From the IMG/VR virus record IMGVR_UViG_2695420403_000017: a DNA stretch of 8,534 nucleotides. The stretch is one strand, 5' to 3'. The translations under genes and the position numbers were made by a program. Below the pieces are notes generated by a model. It saw only the letters and a program-made list of their open reading frames with translations, was not told the origin of the DNA and made no database searches. Below, in pieces: positions 1,958 through 8,534 of this stretch. The DNA is from a virus (lineage: Duplodnaviria; Heunggongvirae; Uroviricota; Caudoviricetes). The first letter of the stretch is position 1. The number at the start of each line of letters is the position of its first letter.

Positions 1958-4405
1958 TTAACCGTCATGCATCATGCTGGCACGGGCGCGCGCACGTTTA
2001 TCCCGCTCGTATTTTTCGAGCGCATCCTGTAACTGGCGGTCAAGCTGTGTCCCCGGCGCAGTACCCCCCGTCAGGCTGATGTGATATTCGTTTTTACTCT
2101 GGTCCACATAAGAGCGGCCAGCCGGTGCCGTGACCGGCTGATAAGCCTGATAACCTGCATAAGAGCTGGTCGCCGGAATATAACCACCGCTGCCATACGT
2201 GGCGGCTTGAGTTCTGGCGGCGGTCTGGTCAAGTGTGTCTGACTCTTTGTTGATGACACCGAGTTTTTCCAGTACCCAGTCAATACCACTGCGCAGTTTG
2301 TTGAACGCATTAAGCGGCAGCATCAGCGCGTCAGCCAGTGCCTGCCCGAACATGACGCCCGTGTCACGGCAACGGTTCAGGGTGTCCTGGGTAGCTTTGA
2401 CCGGGGCAATCAGGTTTTTAAACCACTGCCACGCGGCCTGTAACTTTTCGCCCAGCCAGTCAAACACCGGCTTAAGTGGCGTGAACAGTTCCCCCACCGG
2501 CGCAAATGCCGCTTTCAGCCCTTCCATCACACCGCCAAAGAATGCGCTGACAGGCTCCCAGTATTTACGGATAAGCAACGCCCCGGCGACAATGGTGGCC
2601 ACCACGGCCACAACCGGCCAGCTAATCGCCCCGATGGCCGTCATAACAGCACTGCCAACCGTCGTGAAGACTGCCCCCATTGCGCCTGCTGCCGCGATGA
2701 TGGCATTGATGCCGGTGATAACCGGCCAGGCTACAAGACCAATTGCACCGATGATGCCAGTCAGCGCCAGTGCGCCACCGGCAATGAGACCAATGGTTGA
2801 CGCCAGTGATTTGTTTTTCTGTATCCAGCCGTCGAGTTTTAACACATACTTTGTGGCCGTCTGCGTGAGCTTACGCAGTGCGCCTTCCTGCTGGTCAAAC
2901 AGGTCTGTCCCCACCGCCTCATAAGCGGACTGAAACTCCTTAAAGTCACCGCCGAGGTTGTCCTGCATGATATTTACCAGCTCTTCCGTTTTACCGTCCG
3001 AGGCTTTCAGCGTGGCAGTCAGCTTATCCAGTTTTCCGCTTGCTGCCGCTGCCAGTAAAACGTTCGCTGATTTCAGTGCTTCCTCACCAAAAATGGTTTT
3101 AAGGTATTCCCCCTTCTGAGACGTTCCCAGCTTGTGTTTATCAAAGCTGGCCTGAATCTCTTTCAGAATGGTGAACAACGGACGCATATTTCCCTTTTTG
3201 TCCGAGGTTTTAACGCCAAGCTCTTTTAGTGCTTCCCATGCTTTCCCTGTCGGAGCCTGTAATCGGGTGACAACGGCACTACTACCCGTACCCGCCATTG
3301 ACCCCCTGATGTTATTGTCATGCAGCACACCTGTCATGGCCGCTGCCTGCTCAAGACTTACACCTGCCGTCCTCGCAACCGGACCGAGGTAAGTCAGTGC
3401 ATCACTGAGCCCCTGAAAATCAGCCGCCGACTTATTCATCGTTGCCGACAACACATCGCCCACATGGCTGACATCATCATTTGACAGTTGAAAGGATGCC
3501 TTGGTCCCCAGCAACAGTTGCGCGTTTTCTTCCATCGACCGCTGATTCGCCAGTGCCATATTCAGCGTGACCGGCGTTGCCGCCTGAATAGCCGCAGCAT
3601 CTCCACCCGCTTTCGCAATGATAATCTGCGCACCGGCTGCATCATCCGCCGAGGCGGCTGTGTTGTCGCCGAGCTGGCGCGCCTGTTTGCGTAGCGCGGC
3701 CATTTCGGCGGAATCTTTTGCCACACCGAGCACGGCCTGCAATTCTGAGTTTTTCTGCGCAAACTCATAACCGGGCATCAGCAGCTTAACTCCGGCCATC
3801 GTTCCCGCCGCCGCAATCCCCACACCGGCAGCGCCCACCGAGGCCATATTTCCGGCCAGTTCCTTGCCTGCCTGATAACGCTGTTTGACTGCGTTAAGTT
3901 TTGCCTGTTGCGCACTGACACGCGCCAGCGCGTCACGCTGCCGGTTAAGCTGTGCGGTGGTTTCACTGATACGGTTTTTCAGCCCTCGTTCATCATGCGC
4001 CAGATTACGGGTATTAATACCCGCCTGACTCAATTCCTGACGCTGGCGCTGTACCGACAATCTCAGGCTGTTATATTTCGCCTGTAACTCAGACGCATTT
4101 TTACGCGCGGCTTCCATTGCCTTTGCCTGTGCATTTGTCGGTCGTTCAGTATTTTTAAACTGGACAGCCAGAGCTGCGGCTTCCTGTCTGGCTTTTTTCA
4201 GTTCCTGACCAGTCACGGCGAGCTGTGCACTGGTCTTGCGAAATCCCTCAATACGGGATGCCTGACCGTTCAGCTCGCGCAGTGATTTTTGTGTGTCCCG
4301 GATATCCCCCGACAGCGACTTACTCGCTGTACGGATGGATTTAAACGGGCGGGATGCCTGGTCAACAGCCCTGAGCAATACCTGTAATTTTACATTGTTA
4401 CTCAT
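1958..4405 (-). CDS. T: Tail tape measure protein gpT, 815 aa
   Basis: 815-aa ORF, the length I recall for P2 gpT. It has an N-terminal coiled-coil-like Q/R/A/L-rich region and a central Gly/Ala-rich hydrophobic block (IGLIAGGALALTGIIGAIGLVAWPVITGINAIIAAAGAMGAV...) typical of tape measure proteins. It lies directly downstream of the E/E' chaperone pair. Confidence 0.9.
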   Translation of the reverse strand: MSNNVKLQVLLRAVDQASRPFKSIRTASKSLSGDIRDTQKSLRELNGQASRIEGFRKTSAQLAVTGQELKKARQEAAALAVQFKNTERPTNAQAKAMEAARKNASELQAKYNSLRLSVQRQRQELSQAGINTRNLAHDERGLKNRISETTAQLNRQRDALARVSAQQAKLNAVKQRYQAGKELAGNMASVGAAGVGIAAAGTMAGVKLLMPGYEFAQKNSELQAVLGVAKDSAEMAALRKQARQLGDNTAASADDAAGAQIIIAKAGGDAAAIQAATPVTLNMALANQRSMEENAQLLLGTKASFQLSNDDVSHVGDVLSATMNKSAADFQGLSDALTYLGPVARTAGVSLEQAAAMTGVLHDNNIRGSMAGTGSSAVVTRLQAPTGKAWEALKELGVKTSDKKGNMRPLFTILKEIQASFDKHKLGTSQKGEYLKTIFGEEALKSANVLLAAAASGKLDKLTATLKASDGKTEELVNIMQDNLGGDFKEFQSAYEAVGTDLFDQQEGALRKLTQTATKYVLKLDGWIQKNKSLASTIGLIAGGALALTGIIGAIGLVAWPVITGINAIIAAAGAMGAVFTTVGSAVMTAIGAISWPVVAVVATIVAGALLIRKYWEPVSAFFGGVMEGLKAAFAPVGELFTPLKPVFDWLGEKLQAAWQWFKNLIAPVKATQDTLNRCRDTGVMFGQALADALMLPLNAFNKLRSGIDWVLEKLGVINKESDTLDQTAARTQAATYGSGGYIPATSSYAGYQAYQPVTAPAGRSYVDQSKNEYHISLTGGTAPGTQLDRQLQDALEKYERDKRARARASMMHDG

Positions 4406-4825
4406 TCGTGTTTCCGCTTCGCCGGAGCGCCTTTTCGCGCCATGTGATGAGTTCGGTCAGGCTCATGGGATACAGTTCTGATGGCGGCCAGTGAAATATC
4501 ACTGCCACATCCGCCATCAGGTCATCGACCGAGAGATTTTTCGGAAACGTCACTGCACCGAGTTCGGCGACAAAAAACCGACCACCTTACCGGCCAGCGC
4601 CACAAGGTCAGGCAGTTCCAGCGCGGCGACCTCCTGCTCGGTCAGCATCGGTGCCGTCATGCGCGGCAGCACTTTAATCAGTGCATCGACTTCGGAGTTT
4701 GCGACCGCAGCCAGACTGACACCGCGCAGCGTCCCCGCACTGGGTTTCATCAGCGTGACCTGTTCGATAACCTGCTCACCACGCTTGACCGGATTGTCCA
4801 GGGTAATCACATTTTCTTTGTTCAT
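4398..4825 (-). CDS. E': Tail assembly chaperone E+E', 142-aa product of a programmed -1 frameshift
   Basis: Hand translation from the slippery site in the -1 frame gives VAELGAVTFPKNLSVDDLMADVAVIFHWPPSELYPMSLTELITWREKALRRSGNTNE, stopping at TAA (complement of 4398-4400), which overlaps the T start as ATGAGTAA. 85 aa from E plus 57 aa from E' gives 142 aa, the length I recall for P2 E+E'. Confidence 0.7.
4550..4825 (-). CDS. E: Tail assembly chaperone gpE, 91 aa
   Basis: 91-aa ORF between FII and T, ending ...KVVGFLSPNSVQ, with the slippery heptamer in its last codons. Size and position match P2 gpE. Confidence 0.85.
   Translation of the reverse strand: MNKENVITLDNPVKRGEQVIEQVTLMKPSAGTLRGVSLAAVANSEVDALIKVLPRMTAPMLTEQEVAALELPDLVALAGKVVGFLSPNSVQ
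4571..4577 (-). promoter_or_regulatory. Slippery heptamer T-TTT-TTG for the E to E' -1 ribosomal frameshift
   Basis: Minus-strand sequence GGT TTT TTG TCG reads as G-F-L-S in gpE. The run of six T followed by G is the classic -1 slip site for the tail chaperone pair, analogous to lambda G/GT. Confidence 0.7.
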
Positions 4826-4881: not shown

Positions 4882-5400
4882 TCACAGGCCGATATTGCGG
4901 CGGTGTTGCTCCAGCCGGTCGACGCCGTTCACCTTCTCAATCATGTTGATGGTGTCGATTTCGACCAGCTCCTTACCGTCCATCGTCAGCCGGAAATAGG
5001 TGCAGACCACGGAGATTTTCGACTCGGTGTCTTCTCCCTGTTTACCCTCGCCGGTGTCGATTTCTTTCTGACGTCCACGCATGACCACCTCGACGGCCAC
5101 CGTTTCGCCGGTATCGTCGCGCTGGTAAGAGCCTGCAAAACGAATCGGCACGGCATCCACACCGGTTGCGGCGTAAAGCTCCCAGATAACCGAATCCGGG
5201 AAGCCACCGAGCGACCACTCCATTGACAGCGCATCGTCATCAAGGCCGAGGTCTACCGGTGCGCTGCCGTTCATCCCCGCACCGCGATAGTTTTCGAGCT
5301 TACGGGTCAGTTTTGGCAGCGTGACGGACTTTGCAACGCCCTGATAGCTGTAGCCGTTCAGAAAGACGTTCATTAACTTGAGTTTGCGCGGCATTGCCAT
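4882..5400 (-). CDS. FII: Tail tube protein gpFII, 172 aa
   Basis: 172-aa ORF directly downstream of the sheath gene, matching P2 FII in size, position and sequence as I recall it (MAMPRKLKLMNVFLNGYSYQGVAKS...). AAGGAG Shine-Dalgarno 8 nt upstream, overlapping the FI stop. Confidence 0.9.
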   Translation of the reverse strand: MAMPRKLKLMNVFLNGYSYQGVAKSVTLPKLTRKLENYRGAGMNGSAPVDLGLDDDALSMEWSLGGFPDSVIWELYAATGVDAVPIRFAGSYQRDDTGETVAVEVVMRGRQKEIDTGEGKQGEDTESKISVVCTYFRLTMDGKELVEIDTINMIEKVNGVDRLEQHRRNIGL

Positions 5401-5412
5401 CGGTCAGGCTCC

Positions 5413-6603
5413 TTAATTGCTGTTAACCGAAGTGACCAGATTTGCCAGGTATTTATCGGTAATACGCTGGCGCAGGGTCAGGTTTTCAAGAGGAGGCACC
5501 GGGGTATAGTCGTAGTCGATATACAGTTTTCCGGCCTTGAGGGTTTCCGCATCGTTGGATTCTTCGCTGAACCAGCAGGTCGCATCCACGATATAGCCGT
5601 TTGTTTTCAGTTCACGGAATTTGGCATTAATGCCGTCAACGATGTCGCGAATCAGCGTTGCGGTGATGGGCTTGTCCACCGCCCACATGTGCGCCTCAGC
5701 CATCGTGTCGGCCAGCACCTGCGCGGTGCGGGTGTAGTTTTCAAAGAGGAACAGCGGGTCATCAGAGCAGGTACGGTTACCCCAGAATCGGAAACCGTCG
5801 CGGCGAATCAGCGTAGTGACGCCTGACTCGTTAAGCAGGTCAGCATCGGTGCCGGACTCCTGCAAATCCCAGAATACAGATGCGCTGATGCCGGTAACAC
5901 CGTTCACCCCGACATTGGACAGCGTTTTATGCCAGCCCTGCTCCTGGTCGATTTTAGCGCGCAGCCCCAGCGCACGGGCGGTGGCATACGCGGTGGCGGT
6001 GGTACTGGTGACCGTATCCCATGCGAGGAAATCCGGCCAGATGACCATCAGCTCACGCTGGCTGAAATTCTGGCGGTAGGCTTTCACCTCAGAAATGGTT
6101 TTACAGCCCCATGCGCTGATATACCCGAAAGCGCGCAGCTTCTGACAGACTGATGCCAGTGCAACAGCAACCTCTTTGGTGTCCAGTCCCGGCACACCGA
6201 GAATGCGCGGTTTAACGCCGGTAACCGACTCCGCGCCCATCAGGGCTTTCAGTCCGGTGTACTGACCGTTTTCGTCGGTGGTGCCGATAATATTGGAAAC
6301 GGTCTGCGCGAGTTTCGTTTCCTCGTCGTCGCCGGTGCCGTCTTCCACACGCACGACAACGGTGACCGGTTTTGACTGGTCGGCGATGGCCTGCAACGAT
6401 GCCGCCAGCGTGCCTTTTTTACCGGCCTTTGCAATTGCGCTCTGCACATTGGTAATCAGCACCGGTTTATTGAGGGGGAAGGTTTCCGCATCCGCATCGC
6501 TGGCCGTGCAGACCATGCCGACAATGGCAGTGGATACGGTGGAAATGACGCGGGTGCCGTCGTTAATCTCCAGCACCTGCACGCCGTGATGATAGTCACT
6601 CAT
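5413..6603 (-). CDS. FI: Contractile tail sheath protein gpFI, 396 aa
   Basis: 396-aa ORF, the size I recall for P2 FI, as first gene of the FI-FII-E-T-U-D block, with recognisable sequence (MSDYHHGVQVLEINDGTRVISTVSTAIVGMV...). GGAG Shine-Dalgarno 8 nt upstream. Confidence 0.9.
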   Translation of the reverse strand: MSDYHHGVQVLEINDGTRVISTVSTAIVGMVCTASDADAETFPLNKPVLITNVQSAIAKAGKKGTLAASLQAIADQSKPVTVVVRVEDGTGDDEETKLAQTVSNIIGTTDENGQYTGLKALMGAESVTGVKPRILGVPGLDTKEVAVALASVCQKLRAFGYISAWGCKTISEVKAYRQNFSQRELMVIWPDFLAWDTVTSTTATAYATARALGLRAKIDQEQGWHKTLSNVGVNGVTGISASVFWDLQESGTDADLLNESGVTTLIRRDGFRFWGNRTCSDDPLFLFENYTRTAQVLADTMAEAHMWAVDKPITATLIRDIVDGINAKFRELKTNGYIVDATCWFSEESNDAETLKAGKLYIDYDYTPVPPLENLTLRQRITDKYLANLVTSVNSN

Positions 6604-6634
6604 CCGTTTAACTCCGTGGTTAATGGGTGAGTGG

Positions 6635-6692
6635 TATTTTCAGTTGTGCCGGAGATGTCAGGCTATTTGTCCCGGTTGGCTAAGGGATGACA
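6635..6692 (-). promoter_or_regulatory. Candidate Ogr-dependent late promoter for the FI operon
   Basis: Minus strand TGTCATCCCTTAGCCAAC (plus 6675-6692) is a 5/6 match to the TGT-N12-ACA dyad of P2/P4 late promoters. Its centre lies about 45 bp upstream of a -10-like GAAAAT/AAAATA (plus 6635-6641), placing it near -55. The element overlaps the last codons of the invertase gene. Match by eye only. Confidence 0.3.
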
Positions 6693-7256
6693 CAATTTAT
6701 TCTTTGTCGCTGATGAGGGGAATTTTTTATAGAGCGTGGACAGGCCAATATCAAAAATCAGCGCCACACGTTGACGAGATTCCCCCGCAGCCAGCAACCG
6801 TCCGACCTGCTCCCACTCACTCGCGGTGAGTTTCGGTCGTCTGCCACCAATACGACCTTTGGCTCTGGCCGCTTCCAGCCCGGCCCGAGTCCGCTCGACA
6901 ATGAGTTCTCGCTCCATTTCAGCCAGGGCACCCATCACATGAAAGAAAAAACGCCCCATCGGCGTGCTGGTATCAATAGCATCTGTCAGGCTGCGAAAAT
7001 TAACGCCGCGTTCGCGCAGCTCCTCAACCAGAATGACCAGATGCCGCATACTACGCCCCAGCCGGTCCAGCTTCCAGACTACCAGAGTGTCACCTGCTGA
7101 TAATGTTCTGAGCAGTTTTTTCAGTCCCGGTCGGTCGGACTTCGTGCCGCTGATTTTATCCTCAAAAATCCGCTCGCATCCTGCGCACTCCAGCGCGTTA
7201 CGCTGCAATTCCGTGTTCTGGTCATTTGTCGACACGCGTACATAGCCAATAAGCAT
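6663..7256 (-). CDS. Serine DNA invertase (Pin/Gin/Hin/Cin family), about 197 aa
   Basis: N-terminus MLIGYVRVSTNDQNTELQRNAL carries the catalytic serine motif, and the C-terminus has a helix-turn-helix (GLSTLYKKF), both characteristic of Gin/Pin/Hin. Start chosen at the second ATG (7254-7256), which has an AGGGGG Shine-Dalgarno 6 nt upstream and reproduces the Gin/Pin N-terminus; the track ORF starts 2 codons earlier at 7262. The gene is adjacent to, and divergent from, a tail-fibre variable cassette. Confidence 0.85.
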   Translation of the reverse strand: MLIGYVRVSTNDQNTELQRNALECAGCERIFEDKISGTKSDRPGLKKLLRTLSAGDTLVVWKLDRLGRSMRHLVILVEELRERGVNFRSLTDAIDTSTPMGRFFFHVMGALAEMERELIVERTRAGLEAARAKGRIGGRRPKLTASEWEQVGRLLAAGESRQRVALIFDIGLSTLYKKFPSSATKNKLCHPLANRDK

Positions 7257-7283
7257 GAGCATCCCCCTGAATAAAAACCGGAG

Positions 7284-7781
7284 ATGATGCCACTTGCCCG
7301 TTATCTCTGCATTTTCATAAACGTTGGTTTGGGAGAAGGTGCTCCAGCTATTGGCGTTCCGTTCTTCTGGCCGTCCGCTGCAATGCCAAATACCGTAATC
7401 GACAGCTGGTCCAGTATGGTGTTTTTGAAGTTCAACGGGGTGAAATTTTCTGCCTCTGATTACCCTGTGCTGGCAAAAGTGTTTCCTTCGCTGGTATTAC
7501 CTGAAGCCCGCGGTGATTTCATTCGTATCTGGGATGATGGGCGAGGGGCGGACAGTGGGCGAGCATTATTAAGCTGGCAGGCAGCAACATCTTTATCGCA
7601 ATTTGGCGGTAATTATCCAGAAGGGTCCGGCCATGCGATTGCTGATTACGATGGAATATCAGCACACCAGCCAGGTTTCTCTCGATTTCAGTACACCAGT
7701 AACTCAGTAGGAGATGGTGTTAATTTTATTGCCGTCAGACCACGTAACATTGCATTTAACTTTCTGGTGAGGGCTAAATAA
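7284..7781 (+). CDS. Tail-fibre C-terminal variable cassette (Sv'-like), promoterless and probably in the silent orientation; functional frame likely begins at the crossover site near 7312
   Basis: The ORF has no credible start: GGAG abuts the first ATG with 0-3 nt spacing. Its frame runs through the candidate crossover site, and its stop overlaps the start of a downstream assembly gene (TAATG). It is divergent from and adjacent to the invertase, as in e14 stfE-pinE and the Mu G segment. The fibre-tip assignment rests on this architecture, not on recognised sequence. Confidence 0.6.
   Translation: MMPLARYLCIFINVGLGEGAPAIGVPFFWPSAAMPNTVIDSWSSMVFLKFNGVKFSASDYPVLAKVFPSLVLPEARGDFIRIWDDGRGADSGRALLSWQAATSLSQFGGNYPEGSGHAIADYDGISAHQPGFSRFQYTSNSVGDGVNFIAVRPRNIAFNFLVRAK
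7312..7337 (+). promoter_or_regulatory. Candidate 26-bp recombination crossover site (gix/hix/pix-like)
   Basis: TTTTCATAAACG-TT-GGTTTGGGAGAA has two imperfect inverted half-sites around a central dinucleotide, with the AAAC..GGTTT core and terminal TT/AA of hix/gix sites (about 16-18 of 26 against the sites as I recall them). It lies about 55 bp upstream of the invertase start and inside the fibre cassette reading frame, where constant and variable fibre parts join in Mu, P1 and e14. Confidence 0.45.
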
Positions 7782-8374
7782 TGAAACCTGTTTTTGATGA
7801 AAATGGACTGGCTACAGTGCCGGGTGATATGCGTTGTTTTTATTATGATGCAGTAACGTATGAATATACGGGCTGGTCTGATGAATATATTAATACTGGT
7901 GTAAGTATGCCCGCCTGTTCCACTGGTATTGACCCGGGCGAAAACATTCCGGGAAAAGTGGCAGTATTTACAGGTAAGGGATGGAGCCATGAAGAAGACC
8001 ATCGCAATGAGACTGTTTACTCAATCGAAAATGGTGCTGCTGTTACAGTGGATTATATCGGTGCCATCAAAAACGGTTATGTCACGCTTTCACCGTTAAC
8101 GCCATATGATAAATGGGATGGTGAGAAATGGGTGACAGATACTGAGGCACAACACGGTGCCGCAGTAGAAGCGGCAGAAGCACAGCGCCAGTCACTGATT
8201 GATGCAGCAATGGCTTCCATTAGTCCGATTCAGCTGAAATTACAGGCCGGGCGGAAACTGACGCAGGCAGAAACAACCCGGCTTAACGCTGTGCTGGATT
8301 ACATTGACGCGGTGACGGCAACAGATACCAGCACCGCGCCGGATGTCATCTGGCCTGAACTGCCGGAGGCGTAG
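7781..8374 (+). CDS. Tail fibre assembly protein (Tfa/gpG/Mu U family), 197 aa
   Basis: 197-aa ORF coupled to the fibre cassette, with the Tfa-like C-terminal motif ...[16 protein letters not shown]. It converges on a second Tfa-like gene on the opposite strand. Confidence 0.75.
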
Positions 8375-8534
8375 GCCATTCAATATCGGGTGCTGTTGAC
8401 GTATCAACACGCATCAGCAGCACACGGTATTTCTTCCATTGGGTGAGAGTTGTAGCTTCTTCATCAGTTGCGATATCAGCATCAACAGCATCCTGACGCC
8501 AGGATATTTCACTGTCAGCTTTTTCCCGTAATTG
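8346..8534 (-). CDS. Tail fibre assembly protein, second copy (3' portion only; 5' end beyond the window)
   Basis: Hand translation of the minus strand from the window edge gives ...[53 protein letters not shown], with stop TGA at the complement of 8346-8348. It shares the DTSTAPD(I/V)xWP motif with the plus-strand copy. The ORF is open to the window edge and absent from the ORF track because it is truncated. Confidence 0.6.

Follow-up and report, generated by a model that had tools for sequence, protein, structure and literature searches.

A Din-family DNA invertase beside a tail-fibre cassette in the Z/fun slot of a P2-like Escherichia coli prophage

Introduction

What is a serine DNA invertase doing in the tail gene cluster of a P2-like prophage, and is it part of a working switch of the tail fibre? 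The question is raised by a stretch of 8,534 nucleotides of viral DNA (IMG/VR record IMGVR_UViG_2695420403_000017), here called the window, in which a recombinase gene on the minus strand lies next to a fibre cassette on the plus strand. A sequence-only reading of the window had assigned the gene to the Pin/Gin family, had placed it at the position that P2 uses for Z/fun, and had proposed that the prophage switches its host range by DNA inversion. Here we report how these proposals fare when the window is compared with phages, prophages and complete genomes that carry related loci. The module as such is already known: it is annotated in P2-like phages, is widespread in E. coli genomes and has been documented in the literature. 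The arrangement with the invertase is annotated in phage pro483, in the prophage of O157:H43 T22 and in MET_P1_103_31 (as 'hin'), while a literature search found no paper that mentions pro483 together with an invertase. According to a 2024 preprint the Z/fun hotspot of P2-like phages often encodes a DNA invertase, with inversion of the adjacent genes (bioRxiv 10.1101/2024.10.15.618418), and inversions in two P2-like prophages of EPEC E2348/69 have been confirmed both by sequencing and by PCR (Goldberg et al. 2014; PMC4272514). Our preferred reading, which we hold with high confidence, is that a functional Fis/enhancer-dependent Din invertase in the Z/fun slot of a P2-like prophage flips a tail-fibre segment and thereby exchanges the C-terminus of the fibre together with its chaperone.

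A P2-type late region with a second fibre cassette in the Z/fun slot

The window covers the late/tail end of a P2-like (Peduovirus) E. coli prophage, and the phage records closest to it are Peduovirus. Open reading frames and Pfam matches delineate on the minus strand ogr (1-282, the true start being internal to this frame; Ogr_Delta), D (301-1464), U (1464-1943), T (1958-4405), E/E' (4398-4825), FII (4882-5400; Phage_tube FII) and the tail sheath gene FI (5413-6603; Phage_sheath_1, Phage_sheath_1C and Gp18_domIII_N). The P2 gene order FI, FII, E/E', T, U, D and ogr and the pF promoter are present, and the whole late region is intact. Phage P2 DNA is 99% identical from FI upstream to position 6683, a stretch that covers pF and the start of FI. 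The activator (Ogr) site of the late promoter pF, mapped from the annotated P2 site to 6672-6700 on the minus strand, retains its TGT-N12-CCA dyad and overlaps the final codons of the invertase gene, which the open reading frame map places directly upstream of FI and on the same strand, as had been proposed.

In P2 the interval from G to the pF promoter holds a terminator and, on the opposite strand, fun(Z), whereas the same interval in the window is filled by a second fibre cassette (TFA' and Hv') and the invertase gene. Because the invertase and the fibre cassette occupy the fun(Z) interval of P2, the placing of the gene in the Z/fun position was right. Canonical P2 shares the order of the late genes with the window, and the backbone from pF/FI is 99% identical at the junction, but in P2 an invertase is missing and the slot is taken by fun(Z), which is encoded on the opposite strand. 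No relic crossover site was detected between I and FI of canonical P2 at thresholds that recover gix, cix and pix. In P2-like phages the Z/fun slot is known to be a defence hotspot (bioRxiv 10.1101/2024.10.15.618418).

The invertase gene and its product

The minus-strand open reading frame called on the window runs from 7262 or 7256 down to 6663. The start at 7256 (MLIGYVRVS...) is preceded by a GGGGGA Shine-Dalgarno sequence about 6 nt upstream, and the protein that begins there with MLIGYVRVSTNDQ... has the N-terminus of Gin, Cin and Pin; for these two reasons the coordinates 6663-7256 of the sequence-only reading, corresponding to a protein of 197 aa, are correct. Pfam searches return Resolvase (E=8e-53) and HTH_7 (E=5.5e-13), the signature of a small serine recombinase with an N-terminal catalytic domain that holds the active-site serine and a C-terminal helix-turn-helix. 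The Gin structures 3uj3 and 4m6f align to the protein with E=4e-94, and it matches PHROG 125 ('DNA invertase') at 7e-101. Its identity amounts to 86% with PinE of e14, 78% with Cin of P1 and 76% with Gin of Mu, a homology comparison that bears out the assignment to the Pin/Gin family. Judged by its sequence, the protein belongs to the Din family (Hin/Gin/Cin/Pin) of Fis/enhancer-dependent serine DNA invertases.

The residues needed for catalysis and for regulation are in place. S9, D64, R65 and R68, the catalytic residues, are invariant between the protein and Gin, Cin and Pin; the sequence-only reading had held that inactivating changes at the catalytic serine would speak against a switch, and Ser9 is intact. 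H106, M114, Q150, R153 and L154 are likewise conserved. Mutation of H106 or M114 yields Fis-independent enzymes; both residues are wild type here, and the structure 3uj3 is that of the Fis-independent Gin M114V. In Hin, the residues that are specific to activation by Fis and the enhancer include Q151, R154 and L155 and the basic positions 47/48/51 of helix B (PMC3798978), and they are present in the window's invertase as Q150, R153 and L154 and as K46, K47 and R50, respectively.

Two features of the gene concern its boundaries. The last 13 codons have no counterpart in Pin, Cin or Gin and read into the pF promoter. A simple scan of positions 6550-7500 returned no sigma-70-like promoter for the invertase, and the three terminator-like matches that it did return all fall inside the coding region and are near the number expected by chance. 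The protein is common: its exact 197-aa sequence is recorded in 2419 index blocks of an assembly collection, which amounts to thousands of assemblies.

The invertase-proximal crossover site

A 26-bp invertase-proximal crossover site, TTCTCCCAAACC AA CGTTTATGAAAA, lies at 7312-7337 on the minus strand and adjoins the invertase gene. It is an imperfect palindrome of the form 12-2-12 with the core dinucleotide at 7324-7325, has a single exact match in the window and was matched in 0 of 200 shuffles. As positive controls for the half-site finder, the annotated boundaries of the Mu G segment (gix) and of the P1 C segment (cix) were recovered. The site at 7312-7337 is identical to the pinE-proximal site of e14, and its inner 16 bp, TTGGTTTGGGAGAAGG, are the repeat of the experimentally demonstrated e14 inversion (PMC12529663; PMC4272514 Table S1). 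Homology of the window to other phages and genomes stops at 7314-7339, that is, within or at the edge of the crossover site.

Fibre cassettes on either side of the convergence point

On the far side of the site from the invertase gene, an alternative tail-fibre C-terminal cassette (Hv') occupies 7338-7781 on the plus strand, in the silent position. It matches the C-terminal ends of the PHROG fibre families 3100 (7e-48) and 523 (3e-42) and has no match in Pfam; its open reading frame reaches back to an ATG at 7284, outside the segment, and comprises 165 aa. The tail-fibre assembly gene of the silent cassette (TFA') follows at 7781-8374 on the plus strand (Caudo_TAP at 6e-28; PHROG 105 at 7e-84). 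Converging on it from the minus strand is the 3' end of a second tail-fibre assembly gene, that of the expressed cassette, as an open frame (8346-8534) that ends at 8346 and leaves the window at the other end; this frame is collinear with the TFA gene at 7847-8275 of the locus of E. coli fEC.1 (L001). The window therewith holds the proximal crossover site only and about 70% of the segment, namely one cassette in full (7338-8374) and the last part of its counterpart.

The cassette at 7338-8374 is silent in the window as sequenced, and it is promoterless. Its G+C content of 44-47% contrasts with about 55-59% in the backbone, and at 84% identity its DNA resembles side-tail-fibre genes of two lambdoid phages, mEp213 and mEp043. 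The break of homology at the crossover site, the lower G+C content and the resemblance to lambdoid fibre DNA together mean that the cassette behaves as an exchangeable module. The same cassette as at 7338-7781 occupies the expressed position in strain E2 and in a further locus (L014).

A predicted recombinational enhancer within the invertase gene

The sequence-only reading expected a recombinational enhancer in the 5' part of the invertase coding region, and a candidate is indeed located there on three grounds, namely homology to P1, Fis-like sites and synonymous constraint. The P1 record annotates the Cin enhancer at nt 19-90 of cin, and the six invertase genes compared are free of gaps over this interval; the gapless alignment places the homologous enhancer (sis) of the window, as predicted, at 7167-7238 on the minus strand (nt 19-90 of the coding sequence). 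A scan with the degenerate Fis core consensus GNNYRNNWNNYRNNC picks out two conserved Fis-like 15-mers on the same strand, the crossover-proximal site I at 7220-7234 (coding nt 23-37, centre 7227) and site II, GYGCAGGATGYGARC, at 7172-7186 (coding nt 71-85, centre 7179). The two are co-located in 6/6 genes (those of the window, fEC.1 and pro483 as well as gin, cin and pinE). Their centres at nt 30 and nt 78 are 48 bp apart, which is reportedly also the spacing of the Fis sites that Johnson and colleagues described for Hin in 1987. About 97 bp separate the centre of site I from that of the crossover site; at the native hin locus the enhancer Fis site is about 100 bp from hixL (PMC3798978).

The constraint test drew on 28 invertase genes that are pairwise less than 90% identical and come from Escherichia, Citrobacter, Kluyvera, Salmonella, Pantoea, Photorhabdus, Xenorhabdus and other genera, and scored the identity of codons wherever the amino acid is the same. 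Mean synonymous-codon identity across the 28 genes is 0.57 in the enhancer and 0.37 downstream of it, with a gene-wide mean of 0.41. All ten of the best 4-codon windows fall within two clusters, nt 22-42 and nt 67-93. The strongest peak of constraint in the gene coincides with site I (nt 25-36; 0.92 against the mean of 0.41, z=3.9) and the second with site II (nt 70-84, at 0.75-0.78). The presence of such peaks at both Fis-like sites implies that the sites are selected at the level of the DNA, and Fis probably binds at the predicted sites I and II. The Ser9 codon, which lies inside site I, is TCG in the window and a near-universal TCA elsewhere, a synonymous difference that keeps the purine of the consensus.

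The distal site and the complete switch in relatives

The distal site and the constant part of H lie outside the window; a complete switch is probable in the window's own prophage, and its remaining parts are read here from close relatives. The fEC.1 locus is collinear with the window over 8 kb to the window's end at 94.7% identity, and the best complete E. coli genome is 97% identical across 6500-8534 and 94.7% identical over 8 kb. Both fEC.1 and phage pro483 (L002), whose invertase is 96% identical to that of the window and annotated as 'DNA invertase', display the full gene order I, H, TFA, TFA', Hv', invertase and FI. The strongest inverted repeat in either locus consists of the proximal site and a site inside H, 1.7-1.9 kb apart and alike in their core dinucleotide. 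All relatives with the full segment pair their proximal site with an inverted partner in H whose AA/TT core matches, and such a partner is present in L001, L002, L007, L008-L015 and L017, loci that include carriers of the identical invertase protein. In the window's prophage, homology predicts the distal site inside H near base 9060, beyond 8534; it would be inverted, would resemble TTCTCSMAAACC-AA-GGTATGCGAGAA and would be about 1.75 kb from 7324.

When the fEC.1 segment is flipped in silico at both core dinucleotides, the constant part of H (Hc) comes to lie in frame with the cassette homologous to 7338-7781, which produces an H fibre of 427 aa with the chaperone gene directly after it. The number of sites, one in the window and two in the relatives with a full segment, is not that of a shufflon-like multiple inversion with at least three sites. 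An extra weak match to the site in L008 and L009 falls within an ISEc12 insertion.

Inversion in nature

If only one orientation were ever observed, the sequence-only reading had stated, inversion would have to be given up; relatives of the window occur in both orientations, across E. coli genomes as well as within the assembly of a single strain, TO73, and their breakpoints lie at the predicted core dinucleotide, so that the claim of DNA inversion holds in these relatives. The 3.4-kb segment of L001, once flipped, is matched in a single piece, with 100% coverage and at 96-97% identity, by no fewer than five complete E. coli genomes, and the unflipped query has five single-piece, 100%-coverage matches. 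At a coverage of at least 80% the flipped query retrieves 30 E. coli genomes and the unflipped one 27. A direct comparison of fEC.1 with strain E2 (L007) reveals collinear flanks around an inverted middle of 1.75 kb, and the alignments of the two overlap within the two crossover sites only. The inner half-sites, TTCTCCCAAACC and TTCTCCAAAACC, are swapped between L001 and L007 and the outer halves have not moved; this is the exact footprint of an exchange at the core.

The E. coli TO73 assembly contains two copies of the locus that encode the identical invertase protein of the window and hold the segment in opposite orientations. They belong to a late region that is partially duplicated in tandem, and the segment also carries ISEc12. 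After one copy is flipped at the core dinucleotides the two have 0 mismatches over 8000 compared bases. Frameshifts at the join of the duplication suggest that the duplication is an assembler artefact from a culture that held both orientations; artefact or not, the TO73 inversion is recent and precise. Other Pin-type invertases of the host could, acting in trans, account for part of the differences in orientation between genomes, since PinE, PinQ and PinR all act on such crossover sites (PMC12529663).

Relation to known inversion systems

The nearest named relative of the window's system is PinE with the P segment of e14 in E. coli K-12, with its 86% identical protein and identical proximal 26-bp site. 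In e14, as in the window, the invertase is divergent from a silent stf C-terminal cassette and tfa, the tfa genes are convergent, and a short open reading frame starts just outside the crossover site. The two differ in that the window has a complete P2-type late region and e14 is a lambdoid remnant, in the cassettes themselves, and in the final 13 codons of the window's gene, which PinE lacks and which extend into the pF promoter of P2.

Among P2-like phages, pro483 comes with a 96% identical invertase and the same order H, TFA, TFA', Hv', invertase, FI. Taken together, pro483, the O157:H43 T22 'P2' prophage, EPEC E2348/69 and Fels-2, which we take to be a P2-like prophage, differ from the window only in cassette content and a few substitutions. 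The invertase Fin of the Fels-2 prophage is cited as active (PMC12529663). In an EPEC remnant at 2.98 Mb, for which inversion has been shown by experiment (PMC4272514), an invertase gene whose product is 78% identical lies immediately upstream of FI, and the proximal site is nearly the same as in the window; the second EPEC prophage, at 1.89 Mb, has three sites and four variants, whereas the relatives of the window have two sites.

The sequence-only reading had likened the arrangement to those of Mu, P1 and e14, and the comparison stands for two of the three. Gin and the G segment of Mu (76% identity) exhibit the same divergent layout of invertase and silent cassette, an enhancer at the same codons and, as in the window, a distance of about 96-98 bp from site to Fis site; the order of site, gene and enhancer in the window is collinear with gixR-gin of Mu and pix-pinE of e14. 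Mu differs in its gix half-site (TTCCTGTAAACC against TTCTCCCAAACC), in its segment of 3 kb and in its phage backbone. Cin and the C segment of P1 (78% identity) share the enhancer at cin nt 19-90, which aligns with the window without gaps, but cin is not divergent from its segment: it points towards it, and its 3' end is overlapped by cixL, which leaves the P1 enhancer about 500 bp from the nearest site, compared with about 97 bp in the window.

Proposed mechanism and alternative readings

The switch would operate in the manner of other Din systems. Dimers of the invertase would occupy two crossover sites, the one at 7312-7337 and, about 1.75 kb from it inside H, an inverted partner, and the host protein Fis would bind at two positions 48 bp apart, both within the opening 90 nt of the invertase coding sequence. 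The two crossover sites and the enhancer would then assemble into an invertasome, both sites would be cleaved at the central AA/TT, and rotation of subunits would flip the segment between them. This segment would consist of two convergent cassettes, each made up of a fibre C-terminus and an assembly chaperone, and with each flip the constant N-terminal part of H would acquire the alternative C-terminus, in frame, such that the phage progeny would carry one of two receptor specificities. It is from this exchange that we infer a consequence for host range.

Three other readings of the locus deserve consideration. In addition to phage host range, or in place of it, the switch could benefit the lysogen: the parked cassette could be translated from the ATG at 7284 or 7287 into a free 165-aa receptor-binding fragment that blocks the adsorption of other phages, as has been proposed for StfE2 of e14. 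An in-frame ATG is present 28 nt outside the crossover site, at a position shared by the annotated starts of stfE in e14 and Mup52 in Mu; inversion of the e14 P segment is reported to create StfE2 from that start, with adsorption of T2 being blocked (PMC12529663), and a product of this kind would suit a slot that is a defence hotspot of P2-like phages (bioRxiv 10.1101/2024.10.15.618418). The spacing of the Shine-Dalgarno sequence is poor, however (GGAG precedes the two ATGs by 0 and 3 nt), the scan turned up nothing that resembles a promoter, and the conserved bases may instead serve a divergent promoter of the invertase. With a complete P2-type late region at hand the fibre switch is a sufficient explanation, and we regard the translation of a free fragment as unlikely.

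A decayed relic, in which the window's prophage has an inactive invertase or inactive sites and its fibre genes no longer change orientation, strikes us as highly improbable. Many cryptic prophages are in such a state, the distal site lies beyond the window, and damage is evident among the relatives: ISEc12 sits inside the TO73 segment, H of strain E2 is annotated as two pseudogene pieces, L016 is without H and the distal site, and the EPEC copy resides in a truncated prophage. Yet that truncated EPEC prophage still inverts (PMC4272514), and in the window the open reading frame of the invertase is intact with all catalytic and regulatory residues conserved, in the midst of an entire and intact late region; the identical protein is found in thousands of assemblies and beside both orientations at 0 mismatches. 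A role of the protein as a resolvase or transposon-associated recombinase, with which its Pfam domains would be compatible as they are common to the Tn3 and gamma-delta resolvases, is ruled out by a score at the level of Gin (317 bits against 119 bits for gamma-delta resolvase; E=4e-94 against 2e-33), by window open reading frames that contain no transposase and surroundings that contain no res site, and by the invertase-specific combination of Fis-contact residues, a hix/gix-type crossover site and an internal predicted enhancer.

Implications for P2-like prophages

The preferred reading, a Fis-dependent switch of the tail fibre in the Z/fun slot, amounts to a finding that is correct and ordinary, and it advances no open question. 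Its consequences are practical ones. In annotation, the prophage is to be described as carrying a two-state tail-fibre switch, and the 'partial' fibre gene that adjoins the invertase is an alternative C-terminus and not a pseudogene. Assemblies may be mis-joined where both orientations coexist, as exemplified by TO73. If the free fragment were nonetheless made, the switch would toggle the specificity of superinfection exclusion as well as the host range of the virion, which would fit the role of Z/fun as a defence hotspot. Finally, cross-reaction is possible between this invertase with its sites and other Pin-type systems of the same cell.

Junction of the invertase module with the P2 backbone

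The open reading frame of the serine invertase lacks a stop codon of its own at the point where Pin and Cin end (window 6663-6701). Its final 13 codons extend into P2 backbone DNA and overlap the Ogr-binding site of the late promoter pF, which was mapped to 6672-6700 with a transcription start site at about 6627-6629. Homology to P2, at 99% identity, starts at 6683, and this position denotes the insertion junction of the invertase module.

Enhancer placement and the predicted Fis site I

The enhancer, a predicted one in the window, is located about 97 bp from the nearest crossover site in Mu, e14 and the window, in contrast to about 500 bp in phage P1. The greater distance in P1 arises because cin points at the C segment and cixL overlaps the cin stop codon (locus L005, 5661-6242). 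Within the invertase gene the Ser9 codon (window 7230, CDS nt 27) reads TCG, whereas fEC.1, pro483, gin, cin and pinE all carry TCA. The substitution is synonymous and resides in the most constrained part of the predicted Fis site I; across the 28 diverged invertase genes, same-codon identity at Ser9 is 0.93.

A possible start for the silent cassette

An ATG ATG in frame with the silent cassette stands 28 nt away from the crossover site, outside the invertible segment (window 7284-7337), and reading from it gives the 'silent' cassette a 165-aa ORF. The annotated starts of e14 stfE and Mu Mup52 occupy the same position. Translation may truly begin at the ATG ATG, or these bases may merely be the opposite strand of the invertase promoter region.

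Both orientations in the E. coli TO73 assembly

In the assembly of E. coli TO73 the P2-like late region is partly duplicated in tandem (NZ_LS992171.1 2955000-2994000, locus L018; also L008/L009). The invertible segment, with an ISEc12 insertion inside it, is reversed in one copy relative to the other, and after an in-silico flip the copies differ at 0 of 8000 positions. Genes at the join are frameshifted, and the tandem duplicate was probably created by the assembler from a culture in which both orientations were present.

Other homologues

A homologue of roughly 64% identity recurs at dozens of loci in unrelated taxa, comprising many Beta- and Gammaproteobacteria and MAGs (L049-L099). Scores of these homologues are near-identical, which suggests a widely transferred member of the same recombinase group, probably carried by a transposon or plasmid; they were left out of the enhancer analysis. 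The second P2-like prophage of EPEC E2348/69 (L101, 1888500-1897000) encodes an invertase, 74% identical to that of the window, between the fibre cassettes and tail genes on the opposite strand. Its three crossover-like sites agree with the published four-variant switch.

Overlap of the assembly genes and composition of the tail-fibre cassette

The two tail-fibre assembly genes converge, and their 3' ends share 29 nt (window 8346-8374); the genes of fEC.1 (L001), pro483 and e14 overlap likewise. There is no room between the two genes for a separating terminator. The G+C content of the cassette (window 7400-8200) is 44-47%, compared to about 55-59% in the backbone. In the lambdoid phages mEp213 and mEp043, the side-tail-fibre and assembly genes are 84% identical to the cassette in DNA sequence, which implies that unrelated types of phage exchange receptor-binding modules.
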